Source: a virus
Taxonomy: Duplodnaviria > Heunggongvirae > Uroviricota > Caudoviricetes
IMG/VR virus record: IMGVR_UViG_2740892230_000037
Reading direction: 5' to 3' (one strand)
DNA length: 7,979 nt
Shown here: one piece after another, positions 1,021-7,979 of the stretch
Layout of the letters: every line of letters starts with the position of its first letter
Position numbering within the stretch: position 1 is the first letter of the stretch
Position numbers and translations under genes: made by a program
Notes under the pieces: generated by a model
What the model was told of the DNA's origin: nothing
The model's input: only the letters and a program-made list of their open reading frames with translations
Databases searched by the model: none

Positions 1021-1330
1021 TGTTCAGCGCCTCAAAATCGGGTTCAGCAGAAACCAGTTCAGATGTTTTTGGCATCGTTGTCAGACCGTGTGGAATATCC
1101 CTGCGGAGAACTATGGGTTCGTTTTTAGGGCCGATTACAAATGGGATGCCGTGCAGTCTTAACTNNNNNNNNNNTCCGTGTGGAATATCCCTGCGTAGAA
1201 CTATTGGTTCGTTTTTAGGACCGATTACAAATGGGATGCCGTGCAGTCTTAACTGGTGTTGCTGTTTTGTGTATCGCTCGTATTTCGTGATCTCTTTAAT
1301 CTCTGCTGGAGATAGAGTTAATTCGTACAT
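998..1330 (-). CDS. xis: Excisionase-like small protein; the true product is probably about 80 aa because the ORF crosses gap 1165-1174 and contains a duplicated block
   Basis: ATG at 1328-1330 (MYELTLSPAEIK...) and a lysine-rich C-terminus (NNGKTKKK) that overlaps the int start by 23 nt. Position, size and overlap match lambda-type xis. The 26-aa block LRLHGIPFVIGPKNEPIVLRRDIPHG is encoded twice, on either side of the N run. Confidence 0.55.
   Translation of the reverse strand: MYELTLSPAEIKEITKYERYTKQQHQLRLHGIPFVIGPKNEPIVLRRDIPHGXXXXLRLHGIPFVIGPKNEPIVLRRDIPHGLTTMPKTSELVSAEPDFEALNNGKTKKK
1081..1258. repeat. Two copies of an 84-bp xis segment separated by N10 (1165-1174)
   Basis: 1081-1164 and 1175-1258 align base for base with 3 substitutions, all synonymous in the minus-strand xis frame (ctc/cta, ccc/cca, ggc/ggt). 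Confidence 0.9.
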
Positions 1331-1397
1331 GTGGTCACGTGCCTTTACAGCATGACCGCCGCCACTATAGCTGGTGGGCGGCGATATGGGTTGAACA

Positions 1398-1570
1398 TTA
1401 AAAATCAGCCTGACTCGGGATCAGTTTTTGCCAGATAGCTGAAACGTATTTTGCCTGATAACGGGCGTCATCAAGTGCATTATGGCGCTCACCTTCGAAT
1501 GGGATAGCAGTTCTGGCATCGAAGTCTATGGCTTTCCCCAGCTCAACGATTGTGCGTACATCGCGATCGT
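1398..1570 (-). CDS. DEDDh 3'-5' exonuclease, C-terminal fragment with stop (allele 1)
   Basis: Minus-frame translation DRDVRTIVELGKAIDFDARTAIPFEGERHNALDDARYQAKYVSAIWQKLIPSQADF ending at the stop at 1398-1400. Contains the Exo III motif H-x-A-x-x-D-A (HNALDDA). Truncated upstream by gap 1571-1580. Confidence 0.7.
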
Positions 1571-1580
1571 NNNNNNNNNN

Positions 1581-1843
1581 GCAGTTTTTGCCAGATGGCT
1601 GAAACGTATTTCGCCTGGTAACGTGCATCGTTCAGAGCGTTATGGCGTTCACCTTCGAATGGAATAGTCGTTCTTGCGTCGAAATCCATCACCAGTCCCA
1701 GAGCAACCATCGTTCTTACATCGCGATCATTGGTGTAACGCCACGGGCAGGGGATCCCCTGCCGTTCATATGAACGGCGTAAAATCACGTTGTCGAAAGT
1801 TGCACCGTCACCCCAGACCTGAACAAAAAATTCACCGGAGTTT
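1581..1843 (-). CDS. DEDDh 3'-5' exonuclease, internal to C-terminal fragment (allele 2)
   Basis: In-frame translation NSGEFFVQVWGDGATFDNVILRRSYERQGIPCPWRYTNDRDVRTMVALGLVMDFDARTTIPFEGERHNALNDARYQAKYVSAIWQKL. Carries an Exo II-like FD motif (GATFDNVIL) and Exo III (HNALNDA). Bounded by N runs on both sides. Confidence 0.7.
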
Positions 1844-1853
1844 NNNNNNNNNN

Positions 1854-2192
1854 CTGCGCTTCACGTGATTGCTTCAGCCACCATTTAATGACGTCACGAT
1901 CAATGACTCCGCCAGCAGTATCCAGATCGATGGTCTTGCTAAATTCTGGTCCCATATCTCCGGTTTGCGGATCGAAAAATATTGCGCCTATTGAGATAAT
2001 CGGGGCATCGGGATTTTTTCCCATGGTTTCAAGGTCGATCATCAGATGAATCCCCGCTCTGCTGGTGGATGTGAGCTTATGATGACCATTCACCTTAATT
2101 AAGGGATCTGTCGCCTCGCCAGTTTTATTATCGCTGGCGTGATGCTGATTGCCGCCAGGGTTCTCCTTGTGTGGATGTTCAGCGCCTTCCAT
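1854..2192 (-). CDS. DEDDh 3'-5' exonuclease, N-terminal fragment with His-rich leader (allele A)
   Basis: ATG at 2190-2192; [21 protein letters not shown]...NGHHKLTSTSRAGIHLMIDLETMGKNPDAPIISIGAIFFDPQTGDMGPEFSKTIDLDTAGGVIDRDVIKWWLKQSREAQ. Exo I motif D-x-E (MIDLETMG). Truncated downstream by gap 1844-1853. Confidence 0.7.
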
Positions 2193-2203
2193 TNNNNNNN
2201 NNN

Positions 2204-2527
2204 TTGCGCTTCGCGTGATTGCTTAAGCCACCATTTAATGGTGTCCCGATCAATGACTCCGCCAGCAGTTTCCAGATCGATAGTCTTACTAAATTCCGGT
2301 CCCATATCTCCGGTTTGCGGATCGAAAAATATTGCGCCTATTGAGATAATCGGGGCATCGGGATTTTTTCCCATGGTTTCAAGGTCGATCATCAGATGAA
2401 TCCCCGCTCTGCTGGTGGATGTGAGATTATGATGACCGTTCGCCTTAATTAAGGGATCTGACGCCTCGCCAGTTTCACTATCGCTGGCATGATGCTGATT
2501 GCCGCCAGTGTTCTCCTTGTGCTGATG
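2204..2527 (-). CDS. DEDDh exonuclease N-terminal fragment (allele B, about 95 percent nucleotide identity to 1854-2192)
   Basis: Same frame and motifs (…[99 protein letters not shown]). Bounded by N runs. Confidence 0.65.
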
Positions 2528-2537
2528 NNNNNNNNNN

Positions 2538-2732
2538 GATCGGGGCATCAGGATTTTTTCCCATGGTTTCAAGGTCGATCATTAGATGGTTACACGTCCT
2601 GCTGGTGGATGTGATTTCTTGATGACCGTTCACCTTAATTGAGTGATCTGCCGTCTCGCCAGTTTCATTATCGCTATCGTGATGCTGATTGCCGCCAGTG
2701 TTCTCCTTGTGTGGATGTTCAGCGCCTTCCAT
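2538..2732 (-). CDS. DEDDh exonuclease N-terminal fragment (allele C)
   Basis: ATG at 2730-2732; [65 protein letters not shown]. The 33 nt preceding gap 2734-2743 are identical to the 33 nt preceding gap 2194-2203. Confidence 0.6.
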
Positions 2733-2744
2733 TNNNNNNNNNNC

Positions 2745-2885
2745 ACACGTCCTGCTGGTGGATGTGATAACGTGATGACCGTTCACCGTAATTAAGGGAT
2801 CTGCCGTCTCGCCAGTTTCACTATCGCTGGCGTGATCCTGAGCGCTACCAGCATTCTCCTTGTGTGGATGTTCAGCGCCTTCCAT
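2745..2885 (-). CDS. DEDDh exonuclease N-terminal leader fragment (allele D)
   Basis: ATG at 2883-2885; [47 protein letters not shown]. It is in the same frame as, and 57 nt downstream of, the amber stop of the zinc-ribbon ORF at 2940-2942. Confidence 0.6.
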
Positions 2886-2939
2886 TTCCTTCGGATCATC
2901 TTCCTGAACTTCAACCTGATACTCTTCATCGAATGTTTC

Positions 2940-3085
2940 CTAGTATGTTGCGTCGCCCATCACCGCGCCACAATCAGGGCAGTTGCCGCCGCCGGTCTGA
3001 CCGCAGGCGGTGCAGACTTTTTCCACTTCCTGTTGCGCCACTGGTTCAGGCTGTTTCGTTTCTGGCTCGTTTTGTAACGCATTTG
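2940..3085 (-). CDS. C-terminal end of zinc-ribbon protein (Q/E/P linker plus CxxC-x9-CxxC), ending in TAG
   Basis: In-frame translation ...[47 protein letters not shown] then the TAG stop at 2940-2942. 5' side truncated by gap 3086-3095. Confidence 0.65.
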
Positions 3086-3095
3086 NNNNNNNNNN

Positions 3096-3284
3096 CCATC
3101 GAATATTTCCTGGTATGTTGCGTCACCCATCACCGCACCACAATCAGGGCAGTTGCCGCCACCGCTCTGACCGCAGGCGGTGCAGATCTTTTCCGGTTCC
3201 TGTTGCACTACTGGTTCAGGTTGTTTCGTTTCTGGCTCGTTTTGTTGCGTATTTGGGCTGTTTTGTTCCGCTTTCTGGTCGTTC
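3096..3284 (-). CDS. Zinc-ribbon module, allele with CAG (Gln) in place of the amber stop, reading through toward the exonuclease leader
   Basis: [63 protein letters not shown], with no stop before gap 3086-3095. The CAG codon at 3110-3112 aligns to the TAG at 2940-2942. Confidence 0.6.
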
Positions 3285-3294
3285 NNNNNNNNNN

Positions 3295-3450
3295 AGTTCC
3301 GTTCCGATTCATGCTGGTTCTGGTTTACAGAATCGCGGGTCTGGATCCCCTTAACCCATTTCGGATCATTCGGGTCGCTAATCCCTGCAACAAATTCTCC
3401 GCGAGAGGCAGCAAGCAACTTATCGGCGTCAGGCTGGCTGATATTGGCTG
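3295..3450 (-). CDS. Shared module fragment ([51 protein letters not shown])
   Basis: In-frame minus-strand translation. The same module, with substitutions, sits at the C-terminal end of the 4609-6133 ORF and in 3461-3712. Confidence 0.6.
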
Positions 3451-3460
3451 NNNNNNNNNN

Positions 3461-4405
3461 TCAACAAATTCACCACGTGATACTGCAAGCAGTTCATCGG
3501 CGTCAGGCTGGCTGATATTGGCTGCCTGCATAATTTTCTTTACTTCGTCAGCGGTAACTTTTACCGGTTCTGGTTGTTCAGAATTTTGTGCGGTATTTGC
3601 ATTTTGCGGTAAGCCTGTGTATGTGCCATTTTTTCGGGCAAAATATTCTTCTTTTGTGATTTCAGTAGCCCCGGCAGCCAGCGCCTTATCCAGACCAGAA
3701 AGTTTGTTTGCGNNNNNNNNNNACGTGCGAAGTATTCCTCTTTTGTGATTTCCGTAGCTCCCAGGGCCAGTGCTTTTTCCAGACCAGAAAATTTGTTTGC
3801 GCGACCGTATTTTTCGCCATCCTTGTCGGTGAAGAGGAAGTAGAACGGCCCCTCACGCTCTACAGATGGTTCGACTTCCACTTTGCATTCGGTTTTTTCG
3901 TTGTCCGGAATTGCCGTTTCCACTGCATCAGTTTCTGGTACTGNNNNNNNNNNAGCTTCCGGCGCGGTTTCATTTTTTGGGATATCAGATACCTCAGTTT
4001 CCACTGCATCAGTTTGTGTTTCTGATGACTGGAGAACATCAACAGTGCCCAGGTCTGTTTCTTCATTCTCAAACACGCCCTTTGTCGTCAGGTATTCGCA
4101 GATATATTTGTTCAGTGCTACGGGATCTTTGTGAATGTNNNNNNNNNNTGACGGGAGAGTACCAGCTGTGCCCTGATTTGTTCCTTCGTCATCTTCAAAC
4201 ACGCCCTTGGTAGTCAGGTATTCAGTGATGTATTTGTTCAGTGCTACGGGATCTTTGTGAATGTCGATCGGACGCTCACGGACAAGGCCAAAAATAGTCT
4301 GACGGTCGTAGCGAACGGCATCGGGTTGTTTGCGCATTGATGCGGAAATGCGCTTCCAGTCTTCGCGATCTTTGTCGATAACTTCATTTTTTGCCCAGCG
4401 ATGGA
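3461..4405 (-). CDS. Four gap-separated fragments (3461-3712, 3723-3943, 3954-4138, 4149-4405) of one or more paralogues with a different N-terminal domain joined to the same shared module
   Basis: Translations: (4149-4405) ...HRWAKNEVIDKDREDWKRISASMRKQPDAVRYDRQTIFGLVRERPIDIHKDPVALNKYITEYLTTKGVFEDDEG...; (3954-4138) IHKDPVALNKYICEYLTTKGVFENEETDLG...; (3723-3943) ...VEREGPFYFLFTDKDGEKYGRANKFSGLEKALALGATEITKEEYFAR; (3461-3712) [83 protein letters not shown]. Adjacent fragments overlap as divergent alleles. Confidence 0.55.
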
Positions 4406-4415
4406 NNNNNNNNNN

Positions 4416-4598
4416 CTTTTTCCGGTTCCTGTTGCGCTACTGGCTCAGGTTGTTTCGTTTCTGGCTCGTTTTGTAACGCATTTGGGCTGTTTTGTTCCGC
4501 TTTCTGGCTGTTTTGTTCCGCTTTCTGGCCGTTCTGTTCCGTTTCTTGCTGGTTCTGATTCACTGAATCGCGGGTTTCAATCCCCTTCACCCATTTCG
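4416..4598 (-). CDS. Linker fragment of the shared module, containing a 21-bp tandem repeat
   Basis: [60 protein letters not shown], bounded by gaps on both sides. Confidence 0.55.
4464..4548. repeat. 21-bp tandem repeat (unit gctgttttgttccgctttctg, 2 perfect plus 2 degenerate copies) encoding QKAEQNS heptads
   Basis: Perfect units at 4486-4506 and 4507-4527, degenerate units on either side. Further copies of the unit lie at 3256-3276 and near 3061-3085, next to gaps. Confidence 0.85.
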
Positions 4599-4608
4599 NN
4601 NNNNNNNN

Positions 4609-6133
4609 CGTTCCGTTCCGATTCATGCTGGTTCTGGTTCACAGAATCGCGAGTCTGGATCCCCTTGACCCATTTCGGATCATTAGGGTCGCTAATCCCC
4701 TCAACAAATTCACCACGCGATACAGCAAGTAACTTATCGGCGTCAGGCTGGCTGATATTGGCTGCCTGCATAATTTTGTTTACTTCGTCAGCGGTGACTT
4801 TTACTTGGTTAGCGGAACTCACTTGCGACTGAGCATCCAGCGACTGCGCGTTCTGGCCATGTTCAGTTGTATCCGGTTCCATTGTTTCAGTTGTTGCCTG
4901 TTCACCTGCCATTGCGTCAGATGGTTGTGGTTTTTCTTCTTCTGTTTCACGCTCAGTAACCACCTCGCGGTTAATTTCTTCCAGGATATCTTTTTCCGGC
5001 GTATGCCGGGCAGCTGTGAGAGTTTCCTTGCTGGGGTTCTCGTGATCAGTTTCCGTCAAATAGGCGTTGATATACCCCTGAAGGCGTCCCGGGTAGTGAT
5101 AAAATTCAGGGTGTGCGCTTCGGATAAGTGCAAAAATAGCGGCGCGGGAATAGTCCAGAATACCCGGGGTTGCACGAAGTGCTGCGGACCATTCTTTGAA
5201 CGGACTTTCTTTGTTCAGGACTACTTCTTTTGCGCGACGATAAACGCTGCCCGGAATTTCATAAATATTAAAATCCATCGGAAGTGTGGCTGCTGCAATC
5301 TCCACATCCAGTGTGTCGAGGGTGTGTACTAAATTCGGATTGCGATCGGTTTTGTTCCCACCGCCAGCATTAGCACCGGAAGCCGTGCGGGTGATGCGTG
5401 AAACACGATTTCCTTTCATCCACTCTTTTGTCAGCAGACCCCGATCAGTGTAGTCAGTGTCCAGGTATGCTTCGAAAAAAGCAGTTATTAGTCCCAGGTC
5501 TGAATTACCAGGATTAGGGAAAACTTTGTCAGTGTCACGAACCAGTTTGTGGAGGTCGCGAATCTCCAGCGAGTCGAGCAGACTGGTTTTATGCGAAATA
5601 GCCAGGGCAGTAACAGCCGGTAGTTCTTCAGCCCGTGCAATGTGTAATGCCTGGAGTTCGTCGCGTGAAACGTGCGTTACTGATTTTTCGCTGCCGTGTT
5701 GAGCAAGCCAACGAATGGGCAGTTCCTGACCGGAGACAGGCAGAAGCATGCTCTCCTCAATCTCAGTCATGTCTTCGCCGTTGATGTTGGTATTGTCAGT
5801 GCTGGCTGGTTTGTCCTGAACAGAGGGGGAAGGGCCGATAAATGTCATTGTGATGCCATCTTTCCCGCCTTTTTCATAGCGGTTGCAGAATTCAGTATCA
5901 AACACGCCTTCTGGCGGAAGGTCGTCAACAACGGGCAAATTGACGCGGACGGGTTTTTTAAAGTCGTCTTCATCATAATCGTTGTCATCCATTGCGGTAA
6001 TGCAGCGGGAGATTGCAACAGATAATTTTTTTGCTGTAGTCCAGTAAAAACCACCTTTAATTCCTAGGCGTTTTCTTACTTTGTCATTTTTTGCTTCGCA
6101 ATATAGTGCAAATTCTTCTTTATCAGTGCTCAT
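4609..6133 (-). CDS. Large early-left protein, N-terminal 508 aa (5' complete, 3' cut by gap 4599-4608); tentatively RecE-N-terminal-like, possibly an intact counterpart of Qin-prophage ydfE
   Basis: ATG at 6131-6133 with a GAGG about 10 nt upstream; long protein-like ORF with an acidic TE-rich region. It ends in ...[56 protein letters not shown], the module that elsewhere continues into linker and zinc ribbon. The resemblance of its central region to the RecE N-terminal half is from memory only. Confidence 0.8.
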
Positions 6134-6226
6134 TATTGGTAAACCTCATCACAGATTTAAGGGTGAACAAATCTCTGCCATTGCTGACATATAAGAATGA
6201 AACTGGATATTTATTACGGTGCTGTT

Positions 6227-6418
6227 TTAAAATCCTGCCGGGATTTCGTTATTATCCTGGTGAATAACTTTATCGACCGGGTAACAGTTACCGGGAATTT
6301 TCTGTTCGGTTGCTGCAGTCACACACTCCTGCATTGTCCTGTGAACACTGACTGCAATATCAACTGGCTCTCCGGAAACAAGAAAAACTGTCAGAACAAG
6401 TGCAAATGCTGTATTCAT
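6227..6418 (-). CDS. ydfD: YdfD-like small lysis protein with a hydrophobic N-terminus (63 aa)
   Basis: ATG at 6416-6418 overlaps the dicB stop as ATGA; MNTAFALVLTVFLVSGEPVDIAVSVHRTMQECVTAATEQKIPGNCYPVDKVIHQDNNEIPAGF. It sits immediately downstream of dicB, as in the Qin prophage of E. coli K-12. Confidence 0.7.
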   Translation of the reverse strand: MNTAFALVLTVFLVSGEPVDIAVSVHRTMQECVTAATEQKIPGNCYPVDKVIHQDNNEIPAGF

Positions 6419-6569
6419 TGCCAGCATCCTTTTTGTATCGGACGTAAACGGGCCAGCATTGAAAGAATGCATATTTTATTTAATAGCTCCCGTTCGTGTT
6501 TTCTCTTGTTAATGGCATCTTCAGTAAATACAGGGTTACTGATAGTGACACCAATTTCAAAACAACCTT
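6415..6569 (-). CDS. dicB: dicB allele 1, C-terminal fragment (5' cut by gap 6570-6579)
   Basis: ...GCFEIGVTISNPVFTEDAINKRKHERELLNKICILSMLARLRPIQKGCWQ with stop at 6415-6417. About 90 percent nucleotide identity to 6606-6760. Confidence 0.7.
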
Positions 6570-6605
6570 NNNNNNNNNNCGTCAGAATAAGTGCAAATAC
6601 TGGAT

Positions 6606-6794
6606 TCATTGTGCACATCCTTTTGGCATCAGACGTAAACGGGCCAGCATTGAAACAATGCATACTTTATTTAATAACTCCCGTTCGTGTTTTCTTTTGT
6701 TAATGGCATCTTCAGTAAATACAGGATTACTGATAGTGACACCAATTTCAAAACAACCTTCAGACGTATTAACGTTTGGTAATAACGTTTCCAT
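6606..6794 (-). CDS. dicB: DicB cell-division inhibitor (complete, 62 aa)
   Basis: ATG at 6792-6794 with GAGGA 7 nt upstream; METLLPNVNTSEGCFEIGVTISNPVFTEDAINKRKHERELLNKVCIVSMLARLRLMPKGCAQ. The stop overlaps the ATG of a second ydfD allele (6580-6609, cut by the gap). DicF lies 180 nt upstream on the same strand. Confidence 0.8.
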   Translation of the reverse strand: METLLPNVNTSEGCFEIGVTISNPVFTEDAINKRKHERELLNKVCIVSMLARLRLMPKGCAQ

Positions 6795-6969: not shown

Positions 6970-7012
6970 AAAAAGGGCGGCAGAGCAGTCACGGAGTAAA
7001 ACTGATACCGCC
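6970..7012 (-). terminator. Intrinsic terminator forming the DicF 3' end
   Basis: GC-rich stem (GGCGGUA...UGCCGCC) followed by five U on the minus-strand transcript (A run at plus 6970-6974). Confidence 0.65.
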
Positions 7013-7027
7013 AAACGTCACCAGAAA
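6975..7027 (-). ncRNA. dicF: DicF small RNA (ftsZ-targeting sRNA of the dicB operon)
   Basis: Reverse complement of 6975-7027 reads TTTCTGGTGACGTTTGGCGGTATCAGTTTTACTCCGTGACTGCTCTGCCGCCC followed by TTTTT, which matches the 53-nt DicF sequence as I recall it, and it lies directly upstream of dicB. Confidence 0.8.
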
Positions 7028-7360
7028 ATTGATAACAGAGGGCGTTGCAGCGGGGTTGTCACTTAAGCGTATGGTCAACCTGACAACCCGGTGTCCTCAA
7101 CGGGGAAGGAATAACCCCGCCATACTTACCGCCGCGCCATTTCGCGGATTGCCACAACCGGAAGCGCACGGTCGACGAAAATTTAACGACAGGCTATCTA
7201 TGAACCAGCTACCTCGCCGTGCGCTTTCGCTTTATGCCCTAACTTTTCAGGGACATATCCTTTCAGTAAACTGTCAGTGCCGGATGTTCACCCGTGTCCG
7301 GCGCACGCACTCCACTTCACCCGTGGAGAACTCCTTAATTACCAACCCTCAGGAGGGTGA

Positions 7361-7594
7361 ATGTTAAAATCAACTCTTATTGCTAAATGCCTTTATCAAA
7401 ATCGCATGGTAAGCAGCATTTCAATAGGCGAGTCTGCAGTTAAAAGTATTTTCGAAGAGTACTTTCCCGGGCATGATTTTAATAAATGGAATACCAAATT
7501 ACCGCCAGCAGTTTCAACGCGTATTCTGAAAGCAACCGAAAGAGCAAGTACAATTCGCGTTAACTATTTCATTAAAGATTTGTGGGATCTTTGA
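7361..7594 (+). CDS. Hypothetical 77-aa protein (AT-rich island, unknown family)
   Basis: ATG at 7361 preceded by AGGAGG at 7351-7356; protein-like composition (MLKSTLIAKCLYQNRMVSSISIGESAVKSIFEEYFPGHDFNKWNTKLPPAVSTRILKATERASTIRVNYFIKDLWDL). Base composition turns visibly AT-rich at about 7357. The 3' end overlaps the convergent 135-aa gene by 23 nt. Confidence 0.55.
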   Translation: MLKSTLIAKCLYQNRMVSSISIGESAVKSIFEEYFPGHDFNKWNTKLPPAVSTRILKATERASTIRVNYFIKDLWDL

Positions 7595-7979
7595 TATCCA
7601 CAGAGCCTAAAGTATGTGCATATGGATGTGCTATTATGCGCCCTCGCAGATTTGCATCATTTTCTAAATTCACTGAACGAAACAGGGCATCAACAAGGCT
7701 CTGTACAATGCAAAGGCAATCGAAGACTGTCGCCGTTTCTGTTTTGATTGATGAAAGAACATGGCCATTCACGCAAACAGAAATTACCCGTTTATTAACA
7801 TCGCTTTCCTGCTTTTGATTATCAGAACCATATAGCCCAGAAAAAGCATTGCGCACATTACGAACCATATTATCGATGGTTTCTTTTTCTGCGGTACTAA
7901 GGTCAAGAGTAGCCAGTTGTGAACGAACTATATTCGATGCCATTTCCTGTAATGGCGTTGGTAAATCTTTAAATTCCAT
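7572..7979 (-). CDS. Hypothetical 135-aa protein (AT-rich island, unknown family); start codon is the last three bases of the window
   Basis: ATG at 7977-7979, TAA at 7572-7574; balanced, soluble-looking composition (MEFKDLPTPLQEMASNIVRSQLATLDLSTAEKETIDNMVRNVRNAFSGLYGSDNQ...). The plus-strand ORF antisense to it (7582-7818) is R/S/C-rich and junk-like. Upstream signals are outside the window. Confidence 0.6.
   Translation of the reverse strand: MEFKDLPTPLQEMASNIVRSQLATLDLSTAEKETIDNMVRNVRNAFSGLYGSDNQKQESDVNKRVISVCVNGHVLSSIKTETATVFDCLCIVQSLVDALFRSVNLENDANLRGRIIAHPYAHTLGSVDIKDPTNL

Follow-up and report, generated by a model that had tools for sequence, protein, structure and literature searches.

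The exonuclease RecE of the Rac prophage of Escherichia coli K-12 (b1350) carries in its N-terminal ~590 amino acids (aa) a head of the Pfam family PF06630, a helical middle domain, a tether motif and a zinc knuckle (CNACGQTGGDNCPDC). These are followed at aa 615–850 by the catalytic PD-(D/E)XK domain PF12684, and recE lies in an early-left operon in which recT comes next. YdfE (b1577) is encoded by a pseudogene of the Qin prophage, in the order dicB-ydfD-ydfE, that IS2 has truncated to a 255-aa remnant. T4 DexA and its E. coli homologue EcD are DEDDh 3′-5′ exonucleases of ~200–227 aa that stand alone. Here, we analysed the 7,979 nucleotides of the Caudoviricetes record IMGVR_UViG_2740892230_000037 (the window), and mainly its region 3461-6133, where fragments of a prophage exonuclease gene were found. 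Like RecE, the product has the PF06630 head, the middle domain, the tether motif and the knuckle, and its gene also lies in an early-left operon; it differs in carrying the DEDDh domain PF16473 instead of PF12684, and in being followed by xis-int instead of recT. The synteny is that of ydfE, and the DEDDh domain is shared with DexA and EcD, but here it forms the C-terminal fifth of a protein of 813–823 aa.

The window is split into 16 pieces by 15 runs of exactly 10 N, five of which fall within 3461-6133. Each piece was read on the minus strand, to which all positions below refer unless stated otherwise, and mapped onto contiguous reference loci. All pieces from 1175 to 6133 are in-frame fragments of one gene family, many of them overlapping in the segment covered. 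The region holds fragments of at least four paralogous copies of one lambdoid-prophage early-left-operon gene, the pieces derive from different prophages, and the odd gene layout in the window is mostly an assembly artefact. The real gene is a single coding sequence (CDS) of 805–823 aa in the order dicF-dicB-ydfD-exo-xis-int, or kilR-ydaE-exo-xis-int in Rac-like prophages, and it comes with one of two heads, here called type A and type B. The identity of the gene, the architecture of its product and the assembly artefact, taken together, are as good as certain.

The type A gene starts with the ATG at 6131-6133, and its codons 1–508, comprising the RecE-like head and the first part of the shared tether, occupy 4609-6133 with 99.7% nucleotide identity to E. 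coli PEC148 (locus L001). An open reading frame (ORF) listed at 4577-6133 crosses an N gap, the contiguous coding sequence being 4609-6133 only. In PEC148 the gene is an 813-aa CDS (WP_042631013.1, "3′-5′ exonuclease"), the same size as in phage vB_EcoS-640R1, and hundreds of complete 813-aa proteins, encoded on long contigs and combining PF06630 with PF16473, have N-terminal parts ~100% identical at the aa level to the 508 codons of the window. The original prediction, made from the letters of this DNA, had compared the 508-aa region to the N-terminal region of RecE, and this comparison was borne out. BLASTP aligned type A residues 58–615 with residues 50–591 of K-12 RecE at 59% identity (E reported as 0). 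The Pfam family Exonuc_VIII (RecE N-terminal, PF06630) matched aa 57–189 at 5567-5965 (E=1.7e-35; 123 bits vs. a cutoff of 25), a block with 92% nucleotide identity to aa 114–264 of K-12 recE. The NCBIfam RecE equivalog (NF007259, 877 positions) was matched by type A over positions 1–602 at 943 bits and by type B over 267–603 at 263 bits, both below its cutoff of 1269 bits.

The alignment of type A with RecE takes in the shared module and the zinc motif (RecE CNACGQTGGDNCPDC), and BLASTP found no similarity past RecE aa 591. The PF12684 domain of RecE was not found in type A or type B by the Pfam scan. At its place the full-length proteins match PF16473 (Rv2179c-like, DEDDh; E=1e-67), type A at aa 632–803 with 227.6 bits and type B at aa 642–813 with 222.8 bits (cutoff 27), covering 176 of the 177 profile positions. 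Judged by these profiles, the nuclease swap suggested in the original prediction is real: a predicted DEDDh exonuclease occupies the position of the PD-(D/E)XK 5′-3′ exonuclease of RecE, and the polarity expected is consequently opposite to that of RecE. The cleanest evidence is a Rac-like allele (P0122, locus L008; sieB-kilR-ydaE-exo-xis-int) that is 92.4% nucleotide-identical to K-12 recE over aa 1–590 and then continues into a DEDDh tail with 90–91% identity to those of types A and B. A zinc ribbon had been proposed to have come in with the nuclease; we rejected this since K-12 RecE itself carries the shared module and the knuckle CNACGQTGGDNCPDC, so that neither the tether nor the knuckle was part of the swap. 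Not only is the similarity to RecE significant, the fusions are also found as single CDSs in finished chromosomes and in virion-derived phage genomes.

Type B is a CDS of 816–823 aa, found in strain DA33137 (WP_110074596.1, 823 aa; L003:3932-6403) and in the PPompW prophages of enterohaemorrhagic E. coli, as well as in phages mEp460, Tritos, Evi, HannyBb and PhiR42_1. Four contigs of the window, together spanning 3461-4405, map to its aa 272–488 with 79–99% nucleotide identity; the window lacks the first 271 aa. The contig 4149-4405 encodes aa 272–356 of the middle domain (89.8% nucleotide identity to L003) and is in frame from its first base, the ORF start "MRKQPD" at 4337 being internal to the gene and no true start. 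A divergent allele of aa 319 to ~380 lies at 3954-4138 (79% to L003), and its first 34 nucleotides are identical to part of the piece 4149-4405. Contig 3723-3943 covers aa 357–431 (98.6% identity to L003:5001-5221, inside the 823-aa CDS) and includes the stretch FYFLFTDKDGEKYGRANK at 3792-3845, which is internal as well (aa ~394–411). Finally, a type B-like allele of aa 405–488 was mapped to 3461-3712, with 90.9% nucleotide identity to the type B gene of the Shiga-toxin-producing E. coli (STEC) O103 strain RM8385. What had been taken for a shorter, separate N-terminal domain is thus an internal fragment, aa 272–488, of the 816–823-aa type B protein, from its YdfE-type head region of ~450 aa.

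Nor are the two heads wholly unrelated, as had been supposed. Type B aa 242–626 match the RecE model, and type A 270–360 and type B 245–335 share ~30% aa identity by BLASTP. This segment belongs to the helical middle domain, which lies at 5009-5341 in type A (aa 265–375) and is common to type B (aa 245–343) and RecE; AlphaFold2 (AF2) predicted it with a pLDDT (predicted local distance difference test) of 80–93 in type A and 74–88 in type B. The whole type A head (aa 5–375) was modelled with confidence as three blocks with a pLDDT of about 80–93, while the mean for the type B protein was 40.7, its FYFLF stretch scoring 35–53. Type B aa 1–255 are 87% identical to the K-12 ydfE remnant, whose intact form type B represents, and type B already exists as a PHROG family, phrog_2082, which it matches across all 823 positions. 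Two recent Pfam families, PF27430 and PF27432, are placed on its head in precomputed annotations.

Downstream of the heads, types A and B share 93.5% nucleotide identity, starting at aa 444/454 and extending as far as the stop codon, whereas blastn could not align the sequences upstream of this point. The claim that two unlike upstream regions run into one module is confirmed without a gap in 4609-6569 for type A and in 3461-3712 for the type B-like allele, where the contig leads unbroken from the last part of the type B insert into the module; in type A, all that lies beyond "...NQHESERN" is on other contigs. The peptides quoted for this module are all present on the minus strand. The 14-residue peptide was located at 4736-4777 and 3496-3537, with ANISQPDAD also at 3422-3448, and the RGEFV(E/A)-containing peptide at 4670-4717 and 3356-3403. 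This last peptide is part of a core tether motif at 4670-4726 (type A aa 470–488), of which a second allele lies at 3356-3403 and a truncated copy at 3463-3480, and which is also found in K-12 RecE (aa ~458–480). Of all module elements, this motif alone (LAAxRGE(F/Y)...) is kept in 80% or more of the 19 divergent family representatives compared, whichever nuclease they carry. Its near-invariance within an otherwise disordered region suggests a docking motif for a partner. AF2 modelled type A aa 378–630 as a mostly disordered tether (pLDDT <50 at 378–463, 490–539 and 554–630) with two weakly ordered islands, the core motif (~67) and the zinc knuckle (~54).

Four further contigs carry alleles of the tether. 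The piece 4416-4598 (KWVKGIETRD...QQEPEK) corresponds to type A aa 486–540 with an extra 21 nucleotides, and the piece 3295-3450, ending in ERN, corresponds to aa 457–509, is redundant with 4609-4762 and has its first 34 nucleotides identical to the piece 4609-6569. Contig 3096-3284 (aa 508–570) contains one QKAEQNS unit followed by a zinc knuckle at 3140-3184, and contig 2744-3085 (aa 517–631) a second knuckle allele at 2970-3014 followed by the linker. An in-frame TAG was observed at 2940-2942, after "GDATY" in this last piece, where all other alleles have CAG (Gln); the copy is either pseudogenised or affected by a read error. QKAEQNS repeats had been reported as a general feature of the module. 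The 21-nucleotide unit is in tandem, in two copies, in one allele (4486-4527) and single elsewhere (3257-3277), a minor copy-number polymorphism of the disordered tether. The zinc motif had been described as CxxC-x9-CxxC; both window alleles read CTACGQ(S/T)GGGNCPDC, that is, CxxC-x7-CxxC, and RecE has the motif too. In the finished-genome type B allele of DA33137 (L003) the third zinc-ligand Cys is replaced by Ser (GGGNSPDC), and the knuckle is missing from 8 of the 19 divergent representatives, which suggests that the putative zinc site is dispensable.

The DEDDh domain is also represented in the window by several alleles. Three contigs (1854-2193, 2204-2527 and 2538-2733), each from another allele, cover the linker and the start of the domain (type A aa 584–697) and contain the Exo I motif IDLETMG at 2019-2039, 2369-2389 and 2559-2579; together with the piece 2744-3085, four alleles cover the linker "HPHKEN...TSTSR". 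Two more contigs, within 1398-1843, encode the C-terminal part (type A aa 720–813), with Exo II (GDGATFDN) at 1789-1812, Exo III as HNALNDA at 1624-1644 and HNALDDA at 1464-1484, and the stop codon at 1398-1400. One of these, 1581-1843, is 99.6% identical to the gene of STEC O103 RM8385. The catalytic residues of Exo I (DxE), II (D) and III (H-x4-D) are intact in the window alleles, the second Asp being kept in HNAL(D/N)DA. Residues 10–143 of the domain align with residues 4–162 of T4 DexA (8KEL; phmmer, E=5.9e-8), the two having IDxETMG, GxxFD and RD(I/V)RT in common. From these motifs and profiles, the protein quite probably has 3′-5′ exonuclease activity.

The architecture was also surveyed across the family, as the original prediction had proposed. 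The module proved rare, with 74 clusters (50% identity) in a search of 1.84 billion proteins, and the long representatives were scanned with Pfam. The module was found joined to PF16473 or to PF12684 tails, with or without a PF06630 head. A PF06630 head precedes DEDDh in P0122, P0150 and P0157, and a YdfE-type or short head does so in P0121 and P0124. The canonical RecE types, with a PF06630 head and PD-(D/E)XK, are P0141, P0175, P0181, P0189 and P0190, and a short head is combined with PD-(D/E)XK in P0154 and P0185. Head and tether occur without a nuclease domain in P0123, P0129, P0180 and P0182. These nuclease-less forms match the "RecE-2" proteins of PMC12315714, whereas the window alleles keep an intact DEDDh domain. 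In P0143 (703 aa), the RecE head (PF06630, aa 2–178) and tether are fused straight to a RecT domain (PF03837, aa 528–678), which looks like a deletion that lost the RecE nuclease and joined recE to recT. The gene is present in 4768 of 5426 complete E. coli genomes, at up to nine places per genome. As a sequence it is ordinary, being abundantly annotated in RefSeq, PHROGs (where phrog_607 is the RecE-like head) and Pfam, and the PF06630+PF16473 architecture is precomputed in public databases.

The neighbouring genes place the exonuclease gene in its operon. The contig 4609-6569 holds the type A head, ydfD and part of dicB; ydfD, encoding a DUF1482 lysis protein (PF07358, E=7.8e-25), lies directly upstream of the exonuclease gene at 6227-6418, in the order seen in L001. 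A dicB gene (6606-6794; PF05358, E=3.7e-40) and, upstream of it, a full-length DicF small RNA (6975-7026; Rfam RF00039, 76.7 bits) were mapped to the next contig. The DicF-dicB order is as expected of a Qin-like early-left operon; in Qin, transcription of dicB-ydfD-ydfE-...-intQ starts from the dicB promoter, which DicA represses (bioRxiv 10.1101/2024.09.21.614188). In the five contexts compared (L001, L003, L006, L007 and L008), xis-int follows the exonuclease gene directly, and no recT or other single-strand annealing protein (SSAP) gene was found beside it. Further upstream, a 135-aa ORF (MEFKDLPTPLQEM..., 7572-7979) and two ORFs on the plus strand (7029-7594) gave no Pfam match. In phage Tritos, ydfD and xis flank an intact type B gene of 823 aa. 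Table 1 of PMC12315714 lists Tritos as the prototype of those lambdoid phages that have a nuclease only, lack annealing, single-stranded DNA-binding and anti-RecBCD proteins and are rich in Chi sites. That paper also describes DnaQ-type nuclease genes near int; the text of it that was consulted does not describe the fusion of a RecE scaffold to DEDDh or the types of head.

Our overall explanation, which we regard as probably the best one, is that of a RecE-family scaffold in four parts: a folded head of at least two types (A and B), a helical middle domain, a largely disordered tether of ~250 aa and a C-terminal DEDDh exonuclease. The nucleotide mosaic suggests that co-resident prophages exchange heads and nuclease tails through homologous recombination in the conserved tether and tail. 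The gene would be transcribed with dicB-ydfD from the repressor-controlled early-left promoter upon induction or infection. The head and tether would position the nuclease on a partner or on DNA ends, and the DEDDh domain would remove nucleotides at 3′ ends by two-metal catalysis, most likely on DNA; by homology, we lean towards DNA as the substrate. No phage SSAP would be involved. In the role that we prefer, the protein would trim the 3′ tails of linear phage DNA and so let the host RecBCD and Chi act. RecBCD needs near-blunt ends, and the presence of the gene in the Chi-rich Tritos class, devoid of an annealing protein, fits such a role. We nevertheless consider this RecBCD-feeding role doubtful.

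A broader version of this proposal treats the head and tether of the RecE family as a general platform for delivery, in which the RGE(F/Y) docking motif recruits interchangeable nucleases of opposite polarity to one partner or DNA end. The DEDDh version would then be the sole phage-encoded recombination function in Chi-rich lambdoid phages without an annealing protein (Tritos, mEp460 and many E. coli prophages), blunting 3′ tails so that RecBCD-Chi drives recombination-dependent replication. This is speculative and, in our estimation, unlikely. If true, the platform would add a new type to the phage Rec modules recognised so far and would give a handle on the function of the N-terminal 600 aa of RecE. 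These are dispensable for recombineering, and their role could be approached from the point of the swap, at RecE aa ~590, and from the invariant motif of the tether. Fu and colleagues are said to have reported in 2012 that the RecE N-terminal region enhances linear-linear recombination. Otherwise, the residual interest of a very common E. coli prophage gene with a RecE scaffold, a nuclease of putatively opposite polarity and no annealing partner is modest.

Several points weigh against the explanation preferred here. The idea of feeding RecBCD is based on co-occurrence in four phages of a single paper and on general knowledge. Substrate, polarity and role are all read from homology, and our literature search found no paper describing the architecture or testing the protein. 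Structure prediction, which had also been proposed, gave a confident head, but the knuckle reached only ~54 and the DEDDh domain had a pLDDT <50 in both AF2 models. The order of its secondary structures is compatible with an RNase T/DnaQ-like fold; with AF2 confidence this low, only the sequence profiles speak for the fold. The first of the AF2 alignments mixed both nuclease types and the second was shallow, and a fold search gave no significant matches. Moreover, the K-12 copy (ydfE) is a pseudogene cut by IS2 and one window allele has the TAG at 2940-2942, so that the gene appears dispensable for the host. Lastly, the domain goes by the name of exoribonuclease in Pfam and RefSeq, a name taken from Rv2179c, and RNA is therefore a possible substrate.

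The exoribonuclease annotation leads to the first alternative, that of a 3′-5′ exoribonuclease active in lytic growth, either in the turnover of host or phage transcripts or in the 3′ processing of the co-transcribed DicF. It would account for the best Pfam family being the Rv2179c-like exoribonuclease, for the RefSeq products named "3′-5′ exoribonuclease" and for the presence of DicF in the same operon. DicF processing is attributed to host RNases, however, the nearest solved relative by sequence, DexA, is a DNA exonuclease, and the domain sits on a scaffold that belongs to a DNA recombination exonuclease, in the very place of the DNA nuclease. We consider this alternative unlikely.

The relation to DexA could instead point to a defence nuclease of the DexA/EcD ("HREX") type that degrades modified DNA, e.g., containing 5-hydroxymethylcytosine (5hmC), of superinfecting T-even phages and thereby protects the lysogen. 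DexA is the only solved sequence relative (8KEL/8KEN, E=6e-8), its stand-alone E. coli homologue EcD cuts 5hmC DNA and protects against T4 (PMC12153337), and a gene this common and multi-copy in E. coli would suit such a function. EcD is a different, stand-alone ORF, however, starting with MIDTET and ending with TIPETYD as deduced from its primers. The 5hmC-contacting W152 of DexA aligns with a Tyr here (PWRYYNDRD vs. PCKFWNQRD), and D169 lies beyond the aligned stretch. PADLOC, which is older than HREX, gave no match, and free-living phages carry the gene too. The gene also sits in a repressor-controlled early-left operon and should therefore be silent in a stable lysogen. Such a defence function is accordingly improbable.

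More remote still is a genuine RecE-type recombination exonuclease whose RecT or other SSAP is encoded elsewhere, e.g., in another prophage. The RecE scaffold is indeed present, phage records label the gene exodeoxyribonuclease VIII, and the Tritos nuclease is assigned to a Rec-module class in PMC12315714. The PD-(D/E)XK domain is absent, however, the 943 bits of type A fall short of the RecE cutoff, and no recT is adjacent in the five contexts. A 3′-5′ nuclease would leave 5′ overhangs and not the 3′ tails that an SSAP anneals, as established for RecE and lambda Exo. PMC12315714 also notes that 3′-5′ nucleases of the DnaQ type usually inhibit recombination. This reading is thus very improbable. 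Finally, the idea that assembly or scaffolding alone produced the modular pattern, without a real head-tail protein, to which the unitig chain from several prophages and a tail that is mostly never read through from either head inside the window might lend itself, is already refuted by both full-length CDSs in finished chromosomes and phage genomes and by junctions that both lie inside single contigs (4609-6569 and 3461-3712).

The window itself nonetheless shows how such a pattern can be distorted. The pieces between 1175 and 4598 are merely 156–396 bp each, and at six contig ends an exact identity of 34 nucleotides between contigs is followed by divergence (pairs p15/p16, p12/p13, p09/p15, p07/p14, p06/p04 and p01/p02). 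Such overlaps are the k−1 residue left by a de Bruijn assembler (k=35) at repeat branch points, so that the pieces are unitigs of a repeat. The unitigs were presumably ordered afterwards against a reference and joined by fixed 10-N spacers. We considered a tandem gene array and rejected it, as the exact 34-nucleotide overlaps and the origin from different prophages argue otherwise. The copies are 90–93% identical over 100–200 nucleotides, far above chance level. High similarity of tether and tail between prophages also causes short-read assemblies to fragment in this part of the gene. Such fragments are widespread in public databases: searching a 90%-clustered database with the shared module returned almost exclusively "exonuclease, partial" entries on contigs of 300–900 bp, in clusters of up to 1,680 members, and proteins returned with the type B head end abruptly inside the shared region. 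In practice, scaffolds that join short-read E. coli contigs by 10 N stack alleles of multi-copy prophage genes, and these can resemble exotic gene families.

The origin of the pieces could be traced further from the outermost contigs. The first contig (1-1164) encodes the integrase (1-1020) and the start of the DUF4224 excisionase, and comes from a prophage other than that of the type A head. It is 100% identical to the yccA-adjacent prophage of STEC O103 RM8385, and likewise to several isolates of the CDC (Centers for Disease Control and Prevention). The exonuclease of that RM8385 prophage has a type B head, and it is its tail that the piece 1581-1843 matches at 99.6%. The contig 4609-6569, for its part, has its 99.7% identity to the potC-adjacent prophage of PEC148, whose integrase differs. 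The match of the integrase contig to STEC prophages suggests that the source was a Shiga-toxin-type E. coli with many lambdoid prophages. Within the excisionase (DUF4224) ORF at 998-1330, "LRLHGIPFVIGPKNEPIVLRRDIPHG" was observed on each side of the gap 1165-1174; since the flanking contigs overlap in content, the internal duplication of this ORF is an artefact. Similarly, dicB and the start of ydfD are present twice, as different alleles, around the gap 6570-6579 (6415-6794): a partial dicB (6415-6569) ends the type A contig, and the next contig has the complete dicB at 6606-6794 together with the first codons of another ydfD allele at 6580-6663, so that this join also links two prophages.

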